Shown: positions 1-54,800 of the stretch, one piece after another
How the letters are laid out: every line of letters starts with the position of its first letter
How positions within the stretch are numbered: position 1 is the first letter of the stretch
Source: Catajapyx aquilonaris
Taxonomy: Eukaryota
Length of the DNA stretch: 56,515 nt
Reading direction: 5' to 3'
Assembly: GCA_000934665.2 (NCBI GenBank)
Contig: KZ538171.1
Location: 62,001-118,515, forward strand
The notes under the pieces: model-generated
What the model was told of the DNA's origin: nothing
What the model saw: only the letters and a program-made list of their open reading frames with translations
Database searches by the model: none
Position numbers and translations under genes: made by a program

Positions 1-229
1 CCAACATAGTTGAAGTAATGCAACAAGTTTGTTTATGCTAGCTAACACATCACTGGTTTGCTCATAGTCAGCACTTTTTGTCAAAATGAGATGGTGGCTA
101 TATTTAAAAATATCCATCCACTTCATGTTATTCCAGAATCTAGATGAACCTTGCACACTGGATCTTTAAATGCTATAAACATACTGAAATTGCTTGCTGT
201 GGGGAAAATGAGTATATTGTAACACCAAC

Positions 230-3200
230 CTGATTCCATGGTATGTTGACATTGAAGCCCTCCCCCTTTCCACTTCCCACTACAGTGTGATCTCCTTCTG
301 CTGTTCCAGGGAAGAAGCTCCCATTGTCATAACGATGTACTGACATATAGAGCACACTCAGGTCTTCTTCAAACATGCGCTGCGTCCCATTCCCATGGTG
401 AACATCCCAGTCAACGATCATGACACGCTTAGCGTCATGCATTTGAAGAGCATACTTTGCAGCTGTGGCCACATTGTTCAAGAAACAAAACCCCATGGCC
501 TCATCTGCTTCAGCATGATGGCCAGGTGGTCTAATAATGGCAACTGCAGACCTTGCCTCACCATTCATAACTGCATCAACTGCTGACAGTGCACAACCAG
601 CAGCTAGAATTGCACAGCTATATGTATCTGAGTGGTAATACACACTCTGTACTTCATCCTGCAGTTTGTCCAGTTCACGGGCCTTCATCTTGGATGTTGC
701 AAGTAACTCGGATAAGTACTCCTCCGCATGGCACATCTGGAGTTCTTCCATGGTTGCTTCTCTTGGCTTCAGCTTCAAACAACGCTCTACCAGTCCAAAG
801 TCAAGATGGGCCTGGTATGCACTAGTAATTCGGCTTGGTCGCTCTGGATGCCCTGCATCAGATATATTCCTGTGCCTTGACATTCGCTCATCATAGACGA
901 TTGCTACCTGATGTGGAGCAACTTGAAGGTTAGTTGCAAACATCAAGGCATCCAGGCGCTCATTAAACTTCCCCTTAACATCTTCTGATTGCACTGGATA
1001 GTCGTCCATGACTGGGAATTTTTCTGGGCGCACATATTCAGACAAATATATTGCCTCCACTTTGTGACGCACACCATCTGCTGCTTCTTGTGCTGCTGGA
1101 TATATTTCTTGGAAGCGAAGGGATTTCCAGTATGGTCGGTGTGCATGGATACAGTCCAATATGGCATGGCGTATGGCATTTGAAGGCTCCTTCAGGCTTT
1201 CCACACGTGGACATGGATCTCCCAGAAGGGCCCTAAGGCTGTGGGCAGCCCCCTCAGCCAAAGATTTGAGGCAATATCCACCCTCCAGGACTACTGCCAC
1301 CTTCCCACCAGCCAGGCCCATCAGGCTGCTCACCAAATGGGAGTAGAATGCTGGAGTGACTTCCATCTCACCCTAGCACAAAACATTATGTTAGAAATGA
1401 ACTCAAACATTCACCAAATGTACACTAATTACATCAATATAAAGCCCAGGCCACAAAAGATGCAATATGCTGTATTCCTTCGTTAGCATATGAAAATACT
1501 TGGATTTCCAACTCTTATACAGTAAAACCCTGATAAGATTAACGCAGGTGGTCCAAAATTTGGGTGCATTTCATATTAAACAAGTTCATACTACCTACTT
1601 CTCTCTCATTTTCCCTACCATACCTCCTTCACTCCCTGTTCACGTGCCACAATCCCAGATAAAAGATATGCACACCCTGTTAGAGACGGAGCGCAAATAA
1701 GGCATGTGCATGCAATTCCCATTTTCAAATTTTGATGGGCAAAATCTACGTGAAATGTACACAAATTAAGGGAAACAACAGAAAACAAATCAACATGAGT
1801 GAAATTCTTTTTCATAGCCCAGGAACCATGAGTAACACAATCACATTATTTTCCTCTTAACTGGCTCTCCTTCCCAACAGGATTATCTCCCACACAGATC
1901 TTGTTGCACCCCTCAATTTTTGATACCTCAGGTTAGAGATAATGGCCCCCCTGAGTCTAAGTAGCCAAAGTGACCATAAATAGCCTTCCCCACAAGAATT
2001 TCTTTCATTCTCTTTGTATGAACTGGCCTAGCACTGGACTGCTTATGCCATGACCCAACGGCCATAATATTGTGTAACACAATAATTTCATCTCATTTAT
2101 CTGACAAAACATTGAATTCCTTCTCATCTTTGGGTTTTACTTAACATATATGAGTTTGTCTTATCAGGGTTTGACTATATTATGATTGTATTGTGCAGTT
2201 TCAATATAAAAATTCACATGAAATTATATCATAACACAAGAATGTGTCAGGTATTCAAGCCTAAGAAGTAAATGGCGATTCATGAGGCATTACTGTAATA
2301 ATATCTTGAAAGCAAATACAGGGTGCTCAAAAAATTGCGGAAAGTGGCCACGTAGCCTGATAAGACTCGCACAACAAGTATAGGGATGTGGAAGTAGTTT
2401 TGGGCTAACTTGCATAGTTTTTGCGTACGAAGCCTTTAAGATTTCAGAAGTTTCATGACGTCACATCCGCCTTGAGGCCCCATTGTGTCATCATACATGT
2501 TGTTGTGGCTGTTGCCATTGGCACTGAATATTGTTGCAAATATTGTTGAGAAATAAACAACGATTTCAGTCTGGCAGCTTGTATCTTATGGCCAGAAAGC
2601 CAGACTAAAAACACTGTTTATTTCTCAGCAATCACAGTTGACAATATTCGCAACAATAATAATCAGTGCCAATGGCAACAGCCCCAACTACATGTATGAT
2701 GACGCAATGGGGCCTCAAGCCCTCAAGGCGGATGTGACGTCATGAAACTTCCGAAATCTTAAAGGCGTCGTACGCAAAAACTATGCAAGTTAGCCCAAAA
2801 CTACTTCCACATCCCTATATTAGTTTTGCGAGTCTTACCAGGCTACATGGCCACTTTCCGAGATTTTCTGAGCACCCTGTATAGTGCAATATGAATTAAA
2901 TATTTCATTCAGATAATTATCTTCAGAATTATGGACACACTTAATTACACCCAACCTCAAGGGTCCCTTGTGCAACAGTTCATATCCAAAATGTCCCCAA
3001 GTGCATTACAATATGTAGCTAAGGGCCTGCAATATTCCTCTCTCCCATTAACAATATTAATATACTAATAGCTTTCAAAATGGCGATAAATATAATATAA
3101 ACTGAACCTCTCACCAACAAGTTTAAGATAATTTTCCCAACAAACAACAATTACAAAGTAAAAAAATCAAAATTTCATAATATTGTTGCTTGATTCCGAG

Positions 3201-6200
3201 GCTCCAATTATGATCATTATTTAATTTTAAAATGATAATTTACCTGATACAATTAGTCAATTATAAAGGATACATACACGCTTCTTTAGTGCTCTTTTAG
3301 CTACAATCGAGAATAGTAGGAACCATGAACAGTGCTAAGTTAAATAATAATTAAAATGACACCAGCTAAGCTGTGAAAGTATCTTTTCTTGCACTGTTGA
3401 TGAGAGTTTAGATGTCAAAAATTAAAATTACCTTTTCATCACCCAAGGCAGAGTCAAAACCAGCAGAAACAACAACAAGGTCAGGATTAAACTGTGCCAA
3501 AAAAGTAAGATGGAAAATGCAGGTAAATGAAAAAGTATCAAACTACCATGCAGGAAGGATGGTTGCTAAGCTTAATTTTCTGCCTGTTCTCTTGCACATA
3601 TTGGTCATGCAGCCTTCTTTACATCTATACTAGGGAAATGAGGGTAAAATTTGCACACCTCGGGGCATCCTATTGCAGAGTCATACCCGGCCGACACAAT
3701 GATCAATTCCGGCTGGTACTGCAATAACAACTTCATTATTAGCCAATTGCACTCAAAAAAATAATTAAAATTTCCTACCTACTACAAACCACCCTTGAAC
3801 CCAATGAAATTCCTCGGTAACATACAGAATGGGTAAGTTAATTAACCAATCATCTGAAACCATTTTCTACAATTTCATATTTTCATTACTTTCCCACTAA
3901 CAAGTAAGACTGAAGTATACTCATTATATAAAAGCCGAAGAGATCATTCTAGAATCAAACACAAGAATTATTATCTAAAAGATTTGCTCACTTTCACATC
4001 AATGGAAAGGATATGTTTCAGGATTGACTTTGCTTTCTATGTTAAAATTTTCTTGGACTCTACTGCTATTAAAATCACTGTACATGAAAAAGCGATACGA
4101 ATGTGAGCTCAATAAGGACAATTTCCGACATAAAAAATCTGCTAGAACTAATCCAAATTTGCTCTATAGTTCACATCAATTTTTTACAAGATCCTGAAAA
4201 ATCTGCATTAAAAATATTTCAAAAGCTAAAGCCTGATACGCTGTAATATATGCATTGTGAATGCATTAAGAATTTTTTTCTGTAATGCACTACTAAGAAC
4301 ATTAGAAGAGCAATCTGTGCTGTCAAATTCATAACTGCCTGACCTCATAAGCCATGGGGAGCAACAATTGGTGAAACACAGCCATATAGTCTGAGTTGCC
4401 CATTCCAGTCTGGTTGAGAGGCACGTTGAAATTGAATCCCTTTCCTCTTCCTTCTCCAATATAGTCAAAATCGGACTCTCGAAGAAATGGCCAGAACCTC
4501 CCATTTTCGTAACGGTGAATTGAAAAGTAAACCACTCGAGGGTCATCATAAAACAGCTGCTGCGTCCCTTGACCATGATGCACATCCCAGTCCACAATGA
4601 GCACCTTCTCAAGCTTCCACTTCTCTAGTGCATGCCTTGCAGCAAGAGCTACATTATTGAAAAAGCAATACCCACAAAATTCATCTTCCATTGCATGGTG
4701 ACCTGGCGGCCTAATTATAGCCATGCCATTTTGCACCTTCTCACTGACAATTGCATCCACTAGGTTCAGAGTACTACCAACAGACAGCAGTGCCATCTGA
4801 TAGGTTGCCTCATTCATGTATATCCCATCATATTTCTCCGATGCAACAGTGAGCCGGCCCTGGTCAGTGCATCCTGCTGTTGCTTTTAGAATGTCAGTAA
4901 GAGACTTGGTGTGCAACTTGAAGATCTCAGACTCAGTAGCCTCCCTTGATGAGATGTCATCACATCGATCTACCAGTCCAAGAGCTCGGCACCTCTCTAG
5001 GACAGCAGTGAAACGCTCTGGGCACTCTGGGTGATTGCGATCCCAGGGGCAGAAATGCTCGACCATACGCTCATCATACACCAGTCCAGTGCCTTTTCGC
5101 AACACGTCTTTTGATTCATGTGCCTGGAAGAGAGGAGAAAACACTGATCACAAAGAGCATTACATGAAATCCACAAGCAATAGAATGGGTACAAAATAAT
5201 TACAACCGGGTGAATCAAAAAGTAATTGACAACTTTTTTATTTCTGAATCTTCACTACTGTACTGAAACTGACATATACATGTGAAAGGGCAAGTCTTCC
5301 CCTATTTTTAGACATAGTCACTATACTTTGGTGTACTTGTCCCAGCAGGACACTAGTTTTTCCATGCCACTGCATAAAAAAGTGTTGGGGCTGGCTTGGA
5401 AGTAGTGGCAGACGGCCTGTTTCACTTCGTCTTCGTCACTGAAGTGCTGACTGGCCAGGTGTTTCTTCAGTCGTGTGAAATGCTTGTCTTAACCATAGTC
5501 TACCATCTCTTTGGACCAAGAAAGAAGCACTGGCTTGTTAAGACCTCAGCAACATAGAGGAAGAAAGGACATCCGCCCCTGGCTTCCTAGCCGGCCTGAT
5601 GCTTTTATCTGCAGTGGCAAGGAAAAGCTGGTGTCCCGCTGGGACAAATGCACCAAATTATATGGTGACTATGTTTAAAATTAGAGGAAGACTTTTCCTT
5701 TCATATGTATATAACAGCTTCAGTTTCTGTAGTTAAGCTTCAGAAGTAAAAAAGTTGTCAATTACTTTTCGATTCATCCTCATACTTGTGCACCTACATT
5801 GCACAGTACAGAAATGAGCATGACAGGGAGCATGAACCATGTCACTCCCCCAAGTGCCTCCAGTGATTTGAGGGGTGTGGTGGAAAAAGGTGATAACCCT
5901 CATTTTGGTCATTTTTGACCTAAACACCTAGCTACTACTGTAGTATGTAAAAGACATGACAAACAGTTTGGTATACTCCAAGTTCACGTATCAGGCATGA
6001 GACAGCAACACGGGAATAGATCCAAACCCGCACTGAATGATTTGTGAAGAGAATGTAAACTTCAATTCGCTATCCTGAAAAATTACACTGTTGTGGGTTA
6101 TCACCTTTTTCCACCACACCCCTCATTTGTTAAGCATTCCTCAGCCAGAATGGGTTTGCTGCCACACCAGCAGCAGCATCAATTTTCTGTGCTTTTCCCC

Positions 6201-15518: not shown

Positions 15519-17558
<2,040 letters not shown>

Positions 17559-32075: not shown

Positions 32076-46431
<14,356 letters not shown>

Positions 46432-47474: not shown

Positions 47475-49788
47475 GCTGTATCAGTCGGATATTAACTGTG
47501 ATTCATTTCCCAATAATTATTATTATTAATTTTATTATCACTTTTGTCACTCTGTAAAAGCCTCCCCCTTGACCCATACCCACCCACAATATTGGTTGTT
47601 GCGCATTCCTTTGTTTTCTAAAATCATCCGCTCAAGTCGCAGACTGCTCTTGGTTTGCTGCGCCTCAGGTTGAGCCACTTCTGGCCAAAATCGAATAGGT
47701 GGTTTCATTTGTGTGTGGTGCTGAAGTGGAGTGGCAGGTGAAGTGGCAGAAACCCGGGAAAAGATGCCACAAGTGACAATGGAGAGTGACATTGGTGACT
47801 AGTGAAGCTGCATGTGTGCATGTTCACTCAGCATCCCATGCAGGAGGAATCGAAAATGACATGGCTCCATGTGCACCTGTTACCAGTGCTTGCACTTGAT
47901 GAGATAGTGGGATTGAAAGAAGTGATGTGCAGTTTTGTGCTATTGTCGAATCAAAATCAGACAGGGTATGCGGTATGTTCAGTTTAGTATTCACGAGGTT
48001 GAAGACCAGCATGCTTTTGTAGGCCTTCCCCCATTTTCGTTTAGTTTCCTGCAGAGCTCAAGCCATTTGATGTGAGGTTGCCATAAACATGGGTTTCCCT
48101 CCCCCTTTTGCACTACACAACAGGTACTTCTTGGTAACTCATGCTTTTGCTGAAGTAAACAATAAAGTATGTAAACTCTAAACCTTACCAAACTTGGCCC
48201 ACCTTACTCTGGTCAGAGTGGTATGACATTTGCTGATGGGATGCACTGTTTTGCTTCATATTTGAGGGACACAATTTTTTTGAACTGGTTGGTAACTGCA
48301 TGAAGCAGAAGCCAATGTGCATGGAATGAGATTTATACATCAGTTTGGTTTCCAGAATTTAAACAAGTATCTCATCACACATGGCATGTCAATCTGACAT
48401 TACTGGGACAAGTGGAAATGCAGGGATCAAGGGAGTTTGTCACATATGTGAAACAATATTTCCTGTCTGTGATCAATGGTCTATTGAGGATCACTCAGGT
48501 GATGAGTCACCATGCCAAAGGTGAATTAATGATTCTTTTGTAAGTGAAACTTGAAAAACAGTAGCAATCATGACATATGAGTGATCCAATTTCCCTGCCT
48601 TGTGAGTCAGCTAACGAGTTTACAATCAATGCTAATAATTGTGTCTGCCTCCCTTCTGATGATGTCAATAATTCCCATATGTGATGCAGGTAATAGGCGG
48701 TGCCTACTCTTAAATAATAAAAAAAAGGATGATTCCACCTCTTGTGCCTCACCCGAGCTTCGAAACCCTGCAACTTTCCCAGCAAGTGCTTAAGTAGGGA
48801 AGAGTTCAGTAGAAATTAACTGCTAAATTCTGTCGTTGCTTACAGCTTTTCTTCCACAATATTTAGTTGCTTGGGTGGGGTTGGCATAATACAGTACACC
48901 TCCCATTTCTGCACTCTTGGGAAAGGTGTTTTTTTGAGTCCCCTTCTTGATAACCAGTCAGGTGGCTGATAAGGACTATCTGTAATGTCCTGGAAGGGAG
49001 TGATTAACAACTGTGACTGCCACACAACCATTGCCCCAGTTTGTTAATTTACCTAAGTAATGCCATTTTTTTTCTATTTGGTTTTGGCCTAAATCACTTC
49101 AATCTTGTTTTCTTGCCCAGTTTTTGTTTGTTTGGTTGGTTAACTAACAGTATCAGTTGTAGCACAGTTGATTCTAGGGATAGAGTAGATGTGTGCTAAG
49201 CTACTCACGGCTATGCGACGTAACCCACTTGAAATGCAATCATGGCGCAAGTGTCAAACTAGGACTTGGTAATAATTATTATACGTAAAGGAAGTTGAAC
49301 GTTTCCCTTCGCAAAAACACACAACACACTTGTTGCTCTGAACCTTTCCATCCCTTTTCTGTACAGGTCTGTTTGGTTTATCTTGGATCTATGTGTGTTT
49401 TTTGCAGAAGGAAATGAAGCCCAGCTTTCATAGCTTTTTGTACCAAACGGTTTCCAAATGTACCTTTTTCTTGTGAAATCCAGAAATAAAGGTGTATAAT
49501 GCTTGATTTAAAAAAGTAACCTGTCACAATTGGATGCTTTTTTTATCTTGGTTAGTATCATGCAACCTGTGGCATAATCATCCCACCTGCACCATATGCT
49601 GTGAATAAGGATTCTTGTGTGTCACTTCCTGTCTTTCATCACGTGAGGCATGAGGGATGACGCTCTGGGTCCACAGTAGCATGATAATGCATATCAGTAT
49701 GGCATATATACAGTGATAATTCACAAAAGGGGATAAAAAGCTGTCTGCTGCACCATAGAGCACATCTCAGATCTACTCACTGCTGACA

Positions 49789-50606
49789 ATGAGCTGTAAG
49801 TGAAGGCTGTATCCTGCTTTATGCTCAGGTGACTCTGCATAATTATTCTTAACCCCACTATTGTGTTGTATAAATAGATCCACGCCAAGATCCATTCAAT
49901 CCGTTTGGACAGACCACTACTCGAGAGGAGATCACTCGCGATCCCTGGGGAGGCACCACAATCAGGGAAGAAGACGTCACAAGAGACATGTTTGGGAACA
50001 CAACAGTACGTGATGAGGTTGTACGCAGGGATGCCTGGGGTCGCACCACAGTTGAAGAAGATATTGTGAAGAGGGATGCCTTTGGTCGTACCACAGTTGA
50101 GGAAGACTTTGTGAGAAGAGACCCATGGACAGGAACCACTGTCAAAGAAGAAATCAAGACTGATCCATGGGGGCGCACTACTGTCTCAGAGGAGGTCAGG
50201 CGGGATGGGTGGGGAGGTGCTGCAGCCATGGGACCTCCTCCTCCGTACTACCCTCCTGGACCTGCATACCCAACTCAGGTCCCTATTGCCCCACCAGTGT
50301 TTCCAGCCCCAGTTATTTACCAGCCCACACCAGTGATTCAGGAGACTGTAGTTATTCGTGAAGGGGTGAGTTAAAGTTACTTATTATTTCAAAATATTGA
50401 AACCGTCTTTTCTTGCAACCAGCTCAAATTTGTTGTTCACTTGCTTCACCTTCATTACTGATGACTCATTCATAGGAATTGATGATTTTTTTTTTTTAAA
50501 TGACACCTTCTTTTTAATGCAGCACCACCACCATCATCTCCTTCCACAGCTGTTTGGACACCATCACCATCACCATGGACACCATGGACACCATCATGGT
50601 TGGTGA
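49789..50606 (+). CDS. Uncharacterised ~192-aa protein: ~7 tandem 14-15-aa repeats, Pro-rich linker, His-rich C-terminal tail
   Basis: Exons 49789-49795 (ATG AGC T|gtaagt), 49878-50365 (ends GAA GGG|gtgagt), 50523-50606 (tttttaatgcag|HHHHHLLPQLFGHHHHHHGHHGHHHGW*); phases join correctly; repeats vary mainly at synonymous/conservative positions, arguing for a real coding region. Confidence 0.85.
49889..50216 (+). repeat. Degenerate coding tandem repeat, ~42-45 nt period
   Basis: Units DPWGGTTIREEDVTR / DMFGNTTVRDEVVRR / DAWGRTTVEEDIVKR / DAFGRTTVEEDFVRR / DPWTGTTVKEEIKT / DPWGRTTVSEEVRR. Confidence 0.85.
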
Positions 50607-51419
50607 TAACACGAGATATTGGGATCTGACCTCTGCAGATAAATGCCAAGGAGATGGGTGATTTGTCGCTCTCTGATAACATGTAACCTTGTAATTGTTA
50701 TCCATGTATATCTTCTGTATTGCCTTTGTATAACACTTGTAGTGGTTGTGTAGTTTCAATTTGTATGGCTTGAAAGTTAATTATATGAAGGACTTATATA
50801 CCATTTAAGAGTATTATTTTTGCCTCATTGCAATGCAGTATTGCAAGACAAGCACCTGACTTTTGTGACATCATGCTTAGGTGGTAACATCGTAACTTTT
50901 ACAAAAAGAGGGCTGAGAGGTCTGCCCAATCACCTACTTGTCTGCCTGTCAAGCTTATTTGGATTCAATAAGTCAAATGTTGATGACTCACACTGCAGAC
51001 CGCTGCAGACACAGTGACAGGTTTGCCAGGCTAATGTGTGGAACTCACCTTAGATCTTATTGTGCATGATTGACTTACTCTTACCCACACTCTGGACAGG
51101 TTATCATTATGTTGCAGATTGACACCACGTGTTCTGGTGAGCATTTCAACCATTGCATTGTTCCAAGGCATACTCAAGTGTGTATGACCTTCGTATGACC
51201 AGTGTTCTGGGGCAACAATTTCTATTTTGAGATTGTACTATCTGAGATTTTAACATTGCACATCTCTGGTCAGTCATTGCATTGGTACAGTACCAATAAT
51301 GAATAGAGATAGAAAGATTAGTGCTATTTAAAAAAATTGAAATATCAATTTGGAGAATGCACCTGCTTGGATAGGAATACGATAGAATTTGCTCTACAGC
51401 ACGTGGCTCCTCCTGGTCA

Positions 51420-51817
51420 AAACCGGCTGAACCGGCAGCAGCCATGTGAGGAGCATGAGACGAGGGACCGGAACGCAATGGGAACGCGCGGAACGAAGTC
51501 CTTGGCAACCAGCGCTCCGTGCGGTGGCAATCGGAAAGCGGCGACCTATCACTCCCATTCCGCAGGTGTCGCCGCGGCCGCAGTGAGCGTTCGACAGCCG
51601 ACCAAGTGAGCCGCACTCTCCGTCGCAGCTGCCCACTCGGTGTGACTACCACCGCTCTTTTCCCCCCCTCTCTGGTCTCTGCAATCCTCCTCCGGTTCGG
51701 TTTGGAGGAAGGCACTTCACGGATCTACTGCACCCACAACTTGTCTCCTCATCCTGCGCCGCTGCTGCGTCTCCCCGGGGGCCAACCGACGACGCTGAGC
51801 TGCTGCTCCTGCCGAAG
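51420..51817 (+). promoter_or_regulatory. CpG-rich promoter and probable non-coding first exon of a downstream gene whose CDS is not visible in the window
   Basis: Abrupt GC/CpG-rich block, CGGAA motifs, pyrimidine-rich leader-like sequence ending at a perfect donor AAG|GTGAGT (51817/51818); no convincing coding exon found in the following 4.7 kb. Confidence 0.55.
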
Positions 51818-54800
51818 GTGAGTTCCCATCCGCTAAAGAGGGACGCAGTTTGGGTGGGTGGCCGGGGGAAAAGGAAAGCCAGCCAGCCAAGCCAGGGCAG
51901 GTGTGCATTAGGCCTACCTGGGCCAAACCGCCCACTTCCTCCACCAGCAGGCCCTAACCAGAAAGAGGTTGCTCAACTCGCACCGCTGCACACACACGGG
52001 AGAGGTGTGACTCACGTGGTCCGACTTTGTTGCCATCCCATGCCGACTCATTGTTGTCGGGGGGGGGGGGGGGGGAAANNNNNNNNNNNNNNNNNNNNNN
52101 NNNNNNNNNNNNNNNNNNNNNNNNNNNNNNNNNNNNNNNNNNNNNNNNNNNNNNNNNNNNNNNNNNNNNNNNNNNNNNNNNNNNNNNNNNNNNNNNNNNN
52201 NNNNNNGGGGGGGGGGGGGGGTAACAACATGTGTAATTTGAAAACACAATTGCAGTGCAGTTGACCTAATCTGGCAGCTGCCATAAAGCGTCACTTTATG
52301 GAGCTGTCAATAGTCCGGTCGTAAATAACTAATGATGTATGTTCTTCACCACTGTCAAAACAGAAGGGATGGTTCATGTCGCTTGAGAATCATGACACCA
52401 GCAGATGTAGATCGTGTGAGCCATGCAGAAATGGATCCTGAAGACTTTGTAAACAGAAAGTTGCACTCGAGTGCACGCTTCCTCGTGGGCTTATACCAGC
52501 TTGTGTAATTTGTACAGGCTACAAGTGTTACTATGTTGCAATAACGAGCCTGGAATTTCTAAATATAGCGTGTAAGCCTTTAAAACGCTCCTGGTCACGT
52601 GCATGTGTTGACTATACACAAGTCTTGTGATTGGAAAATAAGTCGCCTATACCTGCATGGTACAATGTACTATATTACATCAAATATTGACGATATCGTT
52701 AGCAGGAGAGAAAGTAATAGAATAAAAAATCTCTGTACGATCCTCGAGGCGGAAGATGAGGGAAGGAAGCACCTGCCTGTCCATCCACTTAGAAAACCAT
52801 TTCTCTGGATTCTGCTGCTGATGTTACTCGGTGGAATCCCAGACTCATCACATTCCTAATGGAGTTCCCAGATAAGGACAGAGTGGGGCTTCCCTCAGCA
52901 TTCCTCTAGGGATGCTAACATCCATTTCTTGGAAGAATTCGATGATTTTTTTTTGTGTGTGTTTTGGTTTTGAGCTTCCCCCCGCCCTTTATTTCCCAGA
53001 AATTGCTTATGGACCTAAGGGCACGTGAGAAAATATCAATTGCAGCCAACCTTGTTCAAAGGGGAGCCTTCCTAAAAGTTATTAAGTGTGGCTGGCTGGC
53101 TCTCAGCTACAAAATGTGAGAAATACGGGCCAGAGTTAGGCGCTAATAATTTTTCCTTATATCCCCGTATAATTAACGACACGGGGAAAGTTCGCAAAAA
53201 TTACGGCAATCTTATTAGTGAACGCAATCTTGAGATGCGCACACTCAGGGACGAATTTCCCATCCCTAAAATATCCCACTTGCCACTTCGATGTCTAGCC
53301 CCTATGAAATGAGGTCGTAAATGCCTCCCTTTGCTCTCTAATGACCAAAACTCATCAACTCTTTGGCCGCAGTGTATCCTGTTGACTCCAACCAAGACTT
53401 GGAATCAATAACAAGATGAGTCTGAGGTTAGCGTAGCGAAAATATGACGATTGTTTTGTTGACAAAACTTGCAGGAGCATTATGCAAATGAGGAGAATTG
53501 TGTGTGATTACAGCAATGAACTTAATTGATATGTGATATTTGTGATGAATAAAAATGACTCATTGAGGTACCACCTTGTATTTTTAATGGGAGTGTGACC
53601 TGGCAACGTATATTTGCGCATCGATGGGTGGTATTGAACATTTTTTTTGCACTGTACACTGTACAGATGTTGTTTCTAACCCCCTCTAGTCACGTAACTT
53701 AATAGGAGCGTCAATACGGGGCGGAAGTTGTGGTCAAGTAAACCACATCCAATTCCCATAGTCTAAATAAAAGGGGCTGACCTTGCTAAATCCTATTTCT
53801 GAAGCTGCATTTTCGGACCCGTGGGGGTAACTCAATTTCAAATTCAGTCGTAAGTCAGAGTATTTAAAGTGATTCTGTCGGTTTCCGATAGTCCCTTTTC
53901 GAATGGAATTATAGTGGAGATTTTGGTTTGATTGGCAACTTTTTCTGGTCCTAGCTCCTAGGACGAAAAGGAAGCTGTGCGTACCTCTTGCCAATTGAAT
54001 TACCCACTCAGGTTGAAATATTTTAAATGAGATTCCTGAATGGATGTGCCTTTCCTGGGACGCTTGTCATGCATCACGTTTTCCAGGGGATTTCGGAGCC
54101 ATTACTGCAGGCCATGTAATTATTCGGTTGTAATTATCAGCGTCAGTTAGATGCTTGCATTGATTTCCTGGCCGTTTTTGCTACAGTGCAGTGTTGGAAT
54201 TTGTTACTAAGAGCGAATGTTTCGGGGGCGTACTTTTTTTTTAATTAGCGTATTTACTGGGTGCTTGGGTATTGTGTTTTGAATGCAGTTTTGTTGACTG
54301 ATGAAATGTTTTTGCGCTTTAGAGGTTGTTTATGCCGAATCGGAGTTCTGTTGCGAAGAAGCGCTTTGAATAGGGTTTTTTTTTATAGTTGAAAATAGTT
54401 TTGATCATTATTCAACTTCGGAACAAGAGCTATTAGCAGTCTGCAAACTTTGAATACGACCTCCATATTTGTAAAAAAGCAACATTAGCCCCTAATGAGC
54501 TGAATGCTTGTGTCACGACAAAATAATTTGAATAACTTTGTTGATTTGAAACTATTTAATATGCAGGATGGCTGGATGCATACAAGTTGCTAATAATGCC
54601 TATGTACGTAATATGTAATCATATCCCATGAGGGGCGCTGCAGAGCACAGGTCGTAACGCACACTCTGCCAATAAGGTACACACTGCAGAAATTCAATAT
54701 TATCTTTGGGCTTAAATGTAACGAGTTCGCTGTTTGTTGTTGCAACGCCGGAGAATGGGCTTTTGCGGGTAAAACAAATATAGAGCCTGTGTAGGTAATA

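Follow-up and report, generated by a model that had tools for sequence, protein, structure and literature searches.

A small three-exon arthropod gene with a D-x-W/F-G repeat module and candidate relatives among PX-domain proteins of marine protists

The repeat protein and described beta-sheet repeats

The G-box of CPAP/SAS-4 is a single-layer sheet that binds a proline-rich peptide of STIL/Ana2. MORN repeats are tandem beta-hairpins that form an elongated sheet, with a unit of about 23 residues and a G-x-G signature, and the open sheets of the vitellogenin family cradle lipid or pigment. Here we describe a gene on the forward strand of a 56,515-nucleotide (nt) stretch of DNA from Catajapyx aquilonaris (contig KZ538171.1, positions 62,001 to 118,515; the whole stretch is called the window, and all coordinates refer to it). 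The gene has a three-exon coding sequence (49789-49795, 49878-50365 and 50523-50606, + strand; 579 nt), and the resulting open reading frame (ORF) of 192 amino acids (aa) is built around tandem D-x-W/F-G units. The reading we favour, at a probability of roughly 0.55, is that this is an arthropod protein-coding gene, spliced as a preliminary description of the DNA had proposed, and that its repeat module belongs to an undescribed family shared with transcripts of marine protists.

Residues 10-111 (49898..50203) comprise seven repeats of 14-15 residues, with unit starts at 49898, 49940, 49985, 50030, 50075, 50120 and 50162, each consisting of one predicted beta-strand and a D-x-W/F-G turn; a degenerate eighth unit, DGWGGAAAMG, follows (residues 112-121, 50204..50233). 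The consensus is D-x-[W/F]-G-x-T-T-V-x-E-E-x-V-x-R. Seven D-x-[WF]-[GT] anchors lie in register at a spacing of 14-15 residues, in addition to an N-P-F-G at the beginning and the degenerate DGWGG unit at the end. Over eight units the columns are occupied by Asp (7/8), Trp or Phe (8/8), Gly (7/8), Thr (7/8), Thr (7/8), Val (5/8), Glu (6/8) and Glu or Asp (7/8). With seven anchors in register, and a run of at least three anchors arising in only one of 20,000 shuffles of residues 1-128, the repeats named in the preliminary description are real. More than one anchor was found in none of the other 340 ORFs of at least 60 aa (341 in the six frames of the window). At the DNA level, Tandem Repeats Finder detected likeness between two units only (50027-50114, period 45, 86%), besides microrepeats of His codons, and third-codon-position identity at conserved residues averaged 0.37 between units. 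This divergence means that the units are old and that the motif has been held at the protein level, with no recent duplication.

The array is followed by a Pro/Tyr-rich linker that is predicted to be disordered (residues 122-156, 50234..50338; 15 Pro and 4 Tyr in 35 residues), inside which lies the string PPPY (residues 123-126, 50237-50248), and by a tail with 16 His in 27 residues that ends in GW. Both the PPPY and the His-rich tail, listed in the preliminary description, are present in the translated product. Kyte-Doolittle hydropathy gave neither a signal peptide nor a membrane segment (highest 19-residue mean 0.83; mean of the first 25 residues -1.51), in agreement with the same description.

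AlphaFold2 was run on the product of exon 2 (P0001; add 3 for the numbering of the full protein) with a 5-row alignment. In the P0001 model strands of 9-11 residues were placed at 10-20, 26-36, 41-50, 56-65, 71-81, 86-94 and 100-108. The predicted local distance difference test (pLDDT) was 76-85 in the repeats and about 50 from residue 112 on, the first ten residues were predicted to be disordered, and the whole model had a mean pLDDT of 69.2 and a predicted template modelling score (pTM) of 0.50. The protist relative P0008, modelled from 15 protist rows without the window protein, gave five such strands at pLDDT 84-88 (mean 68). Both proteins are thus predicted to form an antiparallel beta-meander with one strand per unit and D-x-W/F-G-x as the turn, and the run of beta-hairpins suggested in the preliminary description is supported by the seven modelled strands. 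Judged from the strand limits, the aromatic residues would sit at the hairpin tips, on alternating edges of the sheet, and unit position 11, Glu or Asp in seven of seven units, would form a central acidic ladder.

Foldseek returned no match in the PDB at E<=0.001. Among the weaker matches, the G-box structures (4by2, 4ld3, 4lzf) are open antiparallel meanders built from tandem hairpins, with Foldseek E values of 0.08-0.18, the typical range for unmatched models, and a VIA Z score of 7.4 (root-mean-square deviation, rmsd, 2.3 over 69 residues), again within the common unmatched range, since a best Z of 7-8 is typical for models without a match; between the G-box (the TCP10 C-terminal domain) and the window protein there is no sequence or Pfam match. 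MORN repeats (MORN1, 6t68, 6t69) showed a weak Foldseek likeness at E of about 0.3 and no Pfam match in the window protein. The open sheets of the vitellogenin family (lipovitellin 1lsh_B, honey-bee vitellogenin 9enr_A and the Tettigonia green pigment 9kue_D) were among the better matches of both models: 9kue_D reached Z 9.2 with the window model (rmsd 2.5 over 82) and Z 8.1 with P0008 (rmsd 3.0 over 71), the highest for the latter, and 1lsh_B reached 7.2 and 7.8, respectively, at sequence identities of 3-7% for the vitellogenin-family matches. Walls of outer-membrane barrels score equally well, up to Z 9.9 for BtuB, the best value of the window model, so the vitellogenin match reflects a generic curved meander and assigns no family.

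Closer to the window protein are the protist proteins described below. They share with it a common unit of 15-16 residues (D-x-F/W-G, Thr/Glu, Val, an acidic centre, Val-Val and Arg) and the same predicted meander, in which each unit forms one strand. Both also have a run of His, a stretch rich in PY, and Trp as the last residue. The two groups differ in length and order: the protist proteins have 380-430 aa, with a PX domain, a hydrophobic segment and FGG repeats, and carry the units last, whereas the arthropod protein has 192 aa and carries the units first. Of the Gly/Ala-rich hydrophobic segment of the protist proteins only GGAAAMG remains in the window protein.

Transcript, splicing and coding constraint

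An 855-nt contig assembled from run X5, which stems from the same organism and from another sample and study, aligns to 49735-49795, 49878-50364 and 50522-50803. Its joints skip 82 and 157 nt, both with GT..AG ends. The second joint, printed as 50364>50522 with 'cut +1', is equivalent to 50365>50523, and both joints are exactly the junctions of the preliminary description (49795->49878 and 50365->50523). The exons and the 192-aa product stand as claimed there, and the spliced form is present in an independent run. The lack of X5 cover at 49528-49734 and 50880-51500 was not used as evidence.

The coding part of exon 1 (49789..49795) consists of the ATG at 49789, AGC and T, i.e. Met, Ser and the first base of a Tyr codon, and is followed by the donor GTAAGT. 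Intron 1 (49796..49877; 82 nt, GT..AG, GC content 0.38) ends with its acceptor AG at 49877 and is skipped in the X5 contig. Exon 2 (49878..50365, GC 0.53), covered by the same contig, encodes residues 3-165, holds 166 codons open between stops, and is followed after 50365 by the donor GTGAGT. Intron 2 (50366..50522; 157 nt, GT..AG, GC 0.30), also skipped in the contig, has a pyrimidine-rich acceptor that ends at 50522, and the coding part of exon 3 (50523..50606) supplies the 27-residue tail and the stop codon TGA at 50604-50606. With intron 1 unspliced the reading frame stops after four codons; with intron 2 retained the protein ends two residues into the intron, without the His tail.

To the extent covered by the X5 contig, the 5' untranslated region (UTR; 49735..49788) contains an in-frame stop upstream of the ATG, has an A at position -3, and shows no upstream ATG in its 54 nt. 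The 3' UTR, delimited in the same way, runs over 50607..50803, and neither AATAAA nor ATTAAA was found near 50803, where the contig ends. A TATA-like ATAAAAAG at 49733..49740, read from the sequence about 50 nt 5' of the ATG, is a possible core promoter element. The X5 contig aligns from 49735, inside this stretch, which leaves the transcription start unsettled. On its 5' side, before 49735, the contig carries 23 A that run into the genomic AAAAA of ATAAAAAG; they could be an artefact of assembly or a sign that the true 5' end is different.

Coding constraint was visible in a second species, organism B (run X6), whose 448-nt contig on 49921-50365 (445 nt of exon 2) differs by 34 substitutions and is free of gaps; over the 3' UTR of the upstream gene the contig from this organism shows 35 substitutions and 19 gaps in 391 nt. 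Among the 12 of the 34 exon 2 differences that are listed (22 are not shown), nine fall at codon position 3 and are synonymous (binomial p = 0.004 against one third), and the remaining changes, V>I, R>K and S>T, are conservative. The visible differences in this related species are thus mostly synonymous, a pattern in keeping with purifying selection; the preliminary description had named the absence of such selection and of transcripts, or a confident match to a characterised family, as grounds for refutation, and no characterised family was matched either.

Two long antisense ORFs overlap exon 2 on the - strand, one of 154 aa (49721-50185) and one of 129 aa (49858-50247). They are a by-product of the codon pattern of the repeat.

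Protist relatives and competing explanations

No sequence relative of the window protein was found in Pfam, NCBIfam or the PDB. Pfam at E<=10 returned no family for residues 4-165 (the rest being the three N-terminal residues and the His tail), the MORN, TCP10_C, Nucleoporin_FG and Chitin_bind_4 profiles included; NCBIfam gave nothing close to any cut-off, and the PDB sequence search gave two chance rows at E 0.2. A word-based protein search with exon 2 yielded 61 candidates of near length and none at E<=0.01, and the ESM Atlas gave no usable match to the window protein, with the protist tail reaching only 0.77. Relatives were found with phmmer, which searched 1.84 billion representative sequences and returned 17 matches at E<=0.001. 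Four of these (P0006, P0008, P0013 and P0015) contain a unit of the window type. The remaining 13, among them two cuticle proteins of insects and one D-D-F-G-D-F protein, are of low complexity or have repeats of an unrelated kind. With the 14 added by a profile search, 18 proteins reached E<=0.001; their sources are assemblies of metagenomes, metatranscriptomes or sequencing runs, and none is annotated beyond 'hypothetical protein'. The likeness of the unit is apparent when a protist copy, T-D-M-F-G-N-R-E-V-R-E-E-V-V-D, is set against a copy in the window, R-D-M-F-G-N-T-T-V-R-D-E-V-V-R.

The kinship was assessed with A3, a 15-member alignment of protist sequences from which the window protein was excluded. 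Comparison of A3 with the window protein by hhalign gave a probability of 97.3% and E 2.2e-11 over 69 columns with 43% identity; the alignment spans 4.5 units, and single units share up to 10 of 15 residues. A hidden Markov model (HMM) built from A3 only scored the window protein at 56.0 bits, compared with maxima of 7.1 for 2000 global shuffles, 13.8 for 2000 local shuffles and 12.6 for the reversed sequence, which places the kinship far above what composition would give. Glu at unit position 11 is invariant in A3, and unit position 2 of the protist unit is Met (D-M-F-G).

The full-length picture comes from ten metagenome loci (L001-L010), whose full ORFs of 380-430 aa have this order of parts: an N-terminal PX domain, a long linker rich in PY, Ala and Gln, a His run, the Gly/Ala-rich hydrophobic segment, FGG repeats, three to five units and, usually, a terminal Trp. 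The PX domain exceeded the Pfam cut-off in P0006 and in seven of the eight long locus ORFs, the eighth being open at its 5' end. L002 and L005-L010 contain His runs, for example HHGHHGHHGHHG, and the full-length ORFs have PY-rich linkers. The C-terminal Trp is present in 12 of the 15 A3 members and in seven of the ten locus ORFs; of the three locus ORFs without it, that of L002 is cut off by the contig end, and those of L003 and L004 are fragments of 52 aa. The loci have a GC content of 0.53-0.66, and two of them end in poly(A). The first bases of L005 and L006 are CTCAAG, and GCTCAAG is found close to the start of L002. The DinoSL (dinoflagellate spliced leader) primer listed in Table 1 of PMC4451421 ends in the same six to seven bases. 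The other seven of the ten loci lack these end bases, and the strings are a hint only that the protist relatives are possibly dinoflagellate.

The preliminary description had called the protein an orphan. That label does not hold in the strict sense, as the unit, the His run, the PY-rich stretch and the terminal Trp recur in protist PX-domain proteins, but its suggestion of an undescribed family agrees with the absence of Pfam, NCBIfam and PDB sequence relatives and with profile searches that returned unnamed relatives only. Against Pfam, none of the 15 family members passed a curated cut-off; the matches to DUF2076 (23.2 bits where 38 are required) and DUF7319 (24.7 where 27 are required) lie in low-complexity parts. 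As far as the literature listings show, D-M-F-G repeats, the hexapeptides of the unit and single-layer beta-sheet repeats led to no description of such a family, and hexapeptide matches in papers on p16/CDKN2A peptides and fibulin-2 appear, from the same listings, to be chance strings. The repeat module is therefore an undescribed family within a fold class, tandem beta-hairpin sheets, that is already known.

Among bacterial and archaeal genomes, 70 pattern matches included no relative, and among viral contigs 163 pattern matches included one related stretch (L011), which belongs to a different, secreted repeat protein. This 183-aa ORF (L011:1902-2453, + strand) lies on a 104-kb contig of a viral collection in a bacterial-looking context, starts with a typical signal peptide, ends in W-T-W, reaches no Pfam or NCBIfam cut-off, and contains six 26-residue repeats of the form R-T-D-M-F-G-N-T-T-T-T-H / R-D-S-Y-G-R-T-T-G-T-S-T-T-G; in its turn-plus-Thr motif and its final Trp it resembles the window protein. 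Two unrelated-looking phmmer matches, P0014 and P0011, also contain units of 14-16 residues (W-x-E-T-T-T or W-G-T-T-T-E-E). The first kind occurs more than 20 times, as N-P-W-x-E-T-T-T, in a hypothetical protein of 1630 aa from the wasp Ampulex compressa; the second occurs as H-H-W-G-T-T-T-E-E-P in an ENA protein of 480 aa. Judging from such sequences, short repeats of a Trp turn and a Thr/Glu strand seem to arise often.

Several points weigh against the reading of a spliced arthropod gene whose module is shared with protists. None of the listed sequencing runs is recorded as RNA, the kind of run X5 is unrecorded, and a processed DNA copy would give an identical contig; such a copy, if it was the source, would itself presuppose a spliced mRNA. 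Only 12 of the 34 differences in organism B are listed, and some may be errors at a contig depth of 4.65. In one antisense frame, too, 7 of 12 differences count as synonymous, since its third positions fall on those of the + frame; the strand of the splice sites decides for the + frame. The apparent kinship to the protist proteins depends on low-complexity features and a repeat that is short, the parts come in another order (repeats first in the arthropod, last in the protists), the window protein has neither a PX domain nor a hydrophobic segment, and word-based, phmmer and profile searches of the protein collections found no relative in named animal proteomes. On the structural side, the fold searches yielded matches to generic beta-meanders only, and the models come from shallow alignments (5 and 15 rows; mean pLDDT 69 and 68, pTM about 0.5). 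The assignments of function, binding and location are inferred.

A serious alternative, if a doubtful one, is that of a lineage-restricted arthropod gene whose repeat converged on the protist unit, both being simple hairpins of a turn and a charged strand, and which encodes a generic soluble protein that is highly charged or His-rich, active for instance in metal buffering or stress protection. It would account for the lack of a relative in the named animal proteomes of the protein collections searched, for the different order of parts, and for the missing PX domain and hydrophobic segment, and low-complexity features such as His runs and PY-rich stretches are common in general. Moreover, the clearly different L011 protein has nearly the same turn-plus-Thr unit, with RTDMFGNTTTTH / RDSYGRTTG repeats and a WTW end, so the motif can recur in unrelated contexts, and convergence is retained as a rival for this reason. 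What speaks for common descent is the profile score of 56 bits against at most 13.8 in controls, the hhalign probability of 97.3% over 4.5 units, and the fact that the period of 15, the His run, the PY-rich stretch and the terminal Trp are shared as well. Horizontal transfer from a marine or freshwater protist into the arthropod lineage, with introns, PY linker and His tail gained later, would explain the patchy distribution (protist transcripts, one arthropod and its close relative, and nothing between in the sequence collections searched). We consider it distinctly unlikely in view of two ordinary GT..AG introns, a position flanked by arthropod genes on the same contig, and an exon GC of 0.53 that is ordinary for a coding exon of the window; the gap in distribution may reflect no more than sampling and the annotation of small repeat genes.

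The preliminary description had also read DPW and DPF strings as AP-2 appendage-binding motifs of the Eps15/epsin type. On this reading, with NPF as an EH-domain ligand in addition, the protein would be a series of short linear motifs for endocytosis in disordered sequence. The strings are indeed there (DPF at residue 7, NPF at 10 and DPW at 24, 84 and 98), the first ten residues are predicted to be disordered, and the PX domain of the protist relatives points to endosomal membranes. The core, however, is D-x-[FW]-G in predicted turns, Pro occupies unit position 2 in only four of eight units, the relatives have D-M-F-G, and three of the five strings lie in turns of the predicted sheet (pLDDT about 80) and not in disordered sequence; with Pro not conserved and the motifs in structured turns, the AP-2 reading is weakened to the point of being very unlikely. 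Argonaute-hook GW/WG repeats and nucleoporin FG repeats were dismissed, as half of the aromatic residues are Phe and the units are predicted to be folded, and a membrane beta-barrel was dismissed for strands that are too polar, with Glu at the strand centre. A secreted product, i.e. a multi-copy peptide precursor, a cuticle protein or an antifreeze protein, is suggested by the dibasic pairs (RR or KR) that close four of the seven units, by the Thr-rich strands and by the two cuticle proteins among the chance phmmer matches. These cuticle proteins match through their own low-complexity repeats only, no Chitin_bind_4 or other Pfam domain was matched, and there is no signal peptide or hydrophobic segment; neuropeptide precursor, cuticle protein and antifreeze protein were all dropped because the signal peptide is missing, and we regard a secreted product as highly improbable. 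That the transcript is non-coding or antisense and its frame open by chance is scarcely credible: the long antisense ORFs and the 7 of 12 synonymous differences of one of them could be cited for it, but the GT..AG ends lie on the + strand, the first AUG has an A at -3, the frame is open only after both splices, the repeat has been kept in the protein despite DNA divergence, the related species shows no indels, and the profile match is independent.

With the favoured reading of a spliced arthropod gene that shares a repeat family with protists, a mechanism can be sketched. The 192-aa product would be cytosolic, with a seven-unit antiparallel beta-meander, a disordered Pro/Tyr linker with one PPPY and a His-rich Gly-Trp tail. 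The product would be a soluble adaptor whose sheet serves as a platform for binding at membranes, endosomal or other, the PPPY, a string of the type bound by WW domains that lies here in linker sequence with pLDDT of about 50-55, would recruit WW-domain (Nedd4-type) proteins, and the His tail would confer dependence on metal or pH. A membrane-site platform is the simplest interpretation of the sheet because the relatives fuse the same sheet to a PI3P (phosphatidylinositol 3-phosphate)-binding PX domain. We put this adaptor forward tentatively; our best guess for the protein is a cytosolic scaffold or adaptor, possibly endosome-linked. Rather unlikely, though worth stating, is the broader proposal of an old and as yet unnamed eukaryotic membrane-trafficking module that PX domains direct to PI3P membranes in protists and that became free-standing and soluble in one arthropod lineage, where the sheet, with its tip aromatics and central acidic ladder, would dock on endosomal membranes or partners, the PPPY would engage Nedd4-type ligases and the His tail would respond to metal or pH. 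In a variant of this proposal, the arthropod would have gained the module from a protist by horizontal transfer.

No domain library contains the repeat family, whose predicted architecture looks confident and is simple, a single strand for each 15-residue unit. The family connects a small gene of an arthropod lineage to marine protist proteins with a PX domain. Should this kinship be true, it would provide a starting point for experiments on an unknown endosomal or membrane module, and an instance of a module reused by, or transferred between, very distant eukaryotes; if the likeness arose by convergence, the protein is a clean natural minimal beta-hairpin repeat of use for protein design. The absence of the gene from the protein collections searched indicates that small, repeat-rich, three-exon genes can escape annotation. 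Pending a function or a wider distribution, its interest is moderate.

Genomic neighbourhood and further observations

Besides the repeat-protein gene, the window holds two histone-deacetylase (HDAC) domains (- strand), a TENT4/PAPD5-like ORF, peptidase M3 exons, cullin exons (- strand) and a Ras-family exon. The TENT4-like ORF matched 2225 proteins at E<=1e-20; among the best 120, the named sources are nearly all arthropods, mostly insects. Proteins of cockroach, dragonfly, damselfly, termite and cricket match best, with identities of 74-79% across some 61-67% of the query length. A near-identical match was not among the best 120 listed of the 2225. The host is accordingly an arthropod, probably a hexapod, that is not itself represented in the collection searched. 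The genes adjoining the repeat-protein gene are likewise insect-like. Upstream, a Ras-family exon (45420-45722) precedes the end of a + strand transcript, seen as a 2102-nt X5 contig, at 49505, 15 nt past an AATAAA at 49485-49490. The repeat-protein gene begins only about 230 nt beyond 49505, and since the upstream gene ends there after its own AATAAA, the repeat-protein gene is a separate transcription unit.

Downstream, the stretch 51146-51900 is rich in GC, and its - strand carries an ORF of 192 aa without a Pfam match; the stretch may be the first exon or the promoter of the next gene. A short X5 contig of low depth lies on 51595-51817, and a run of N extends over about 52080-52210. Elsewhere in the window, the HDAC gene (173-5147, - strand) encodes its two deacetylase domains in unusually large exons, with 399 and 272 codons open, and the TENT4-like gene (15519-17558, + strand) is one open frame of 679 codons. 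Exons of this size are probably larger than those of the vertebrate orthologues.

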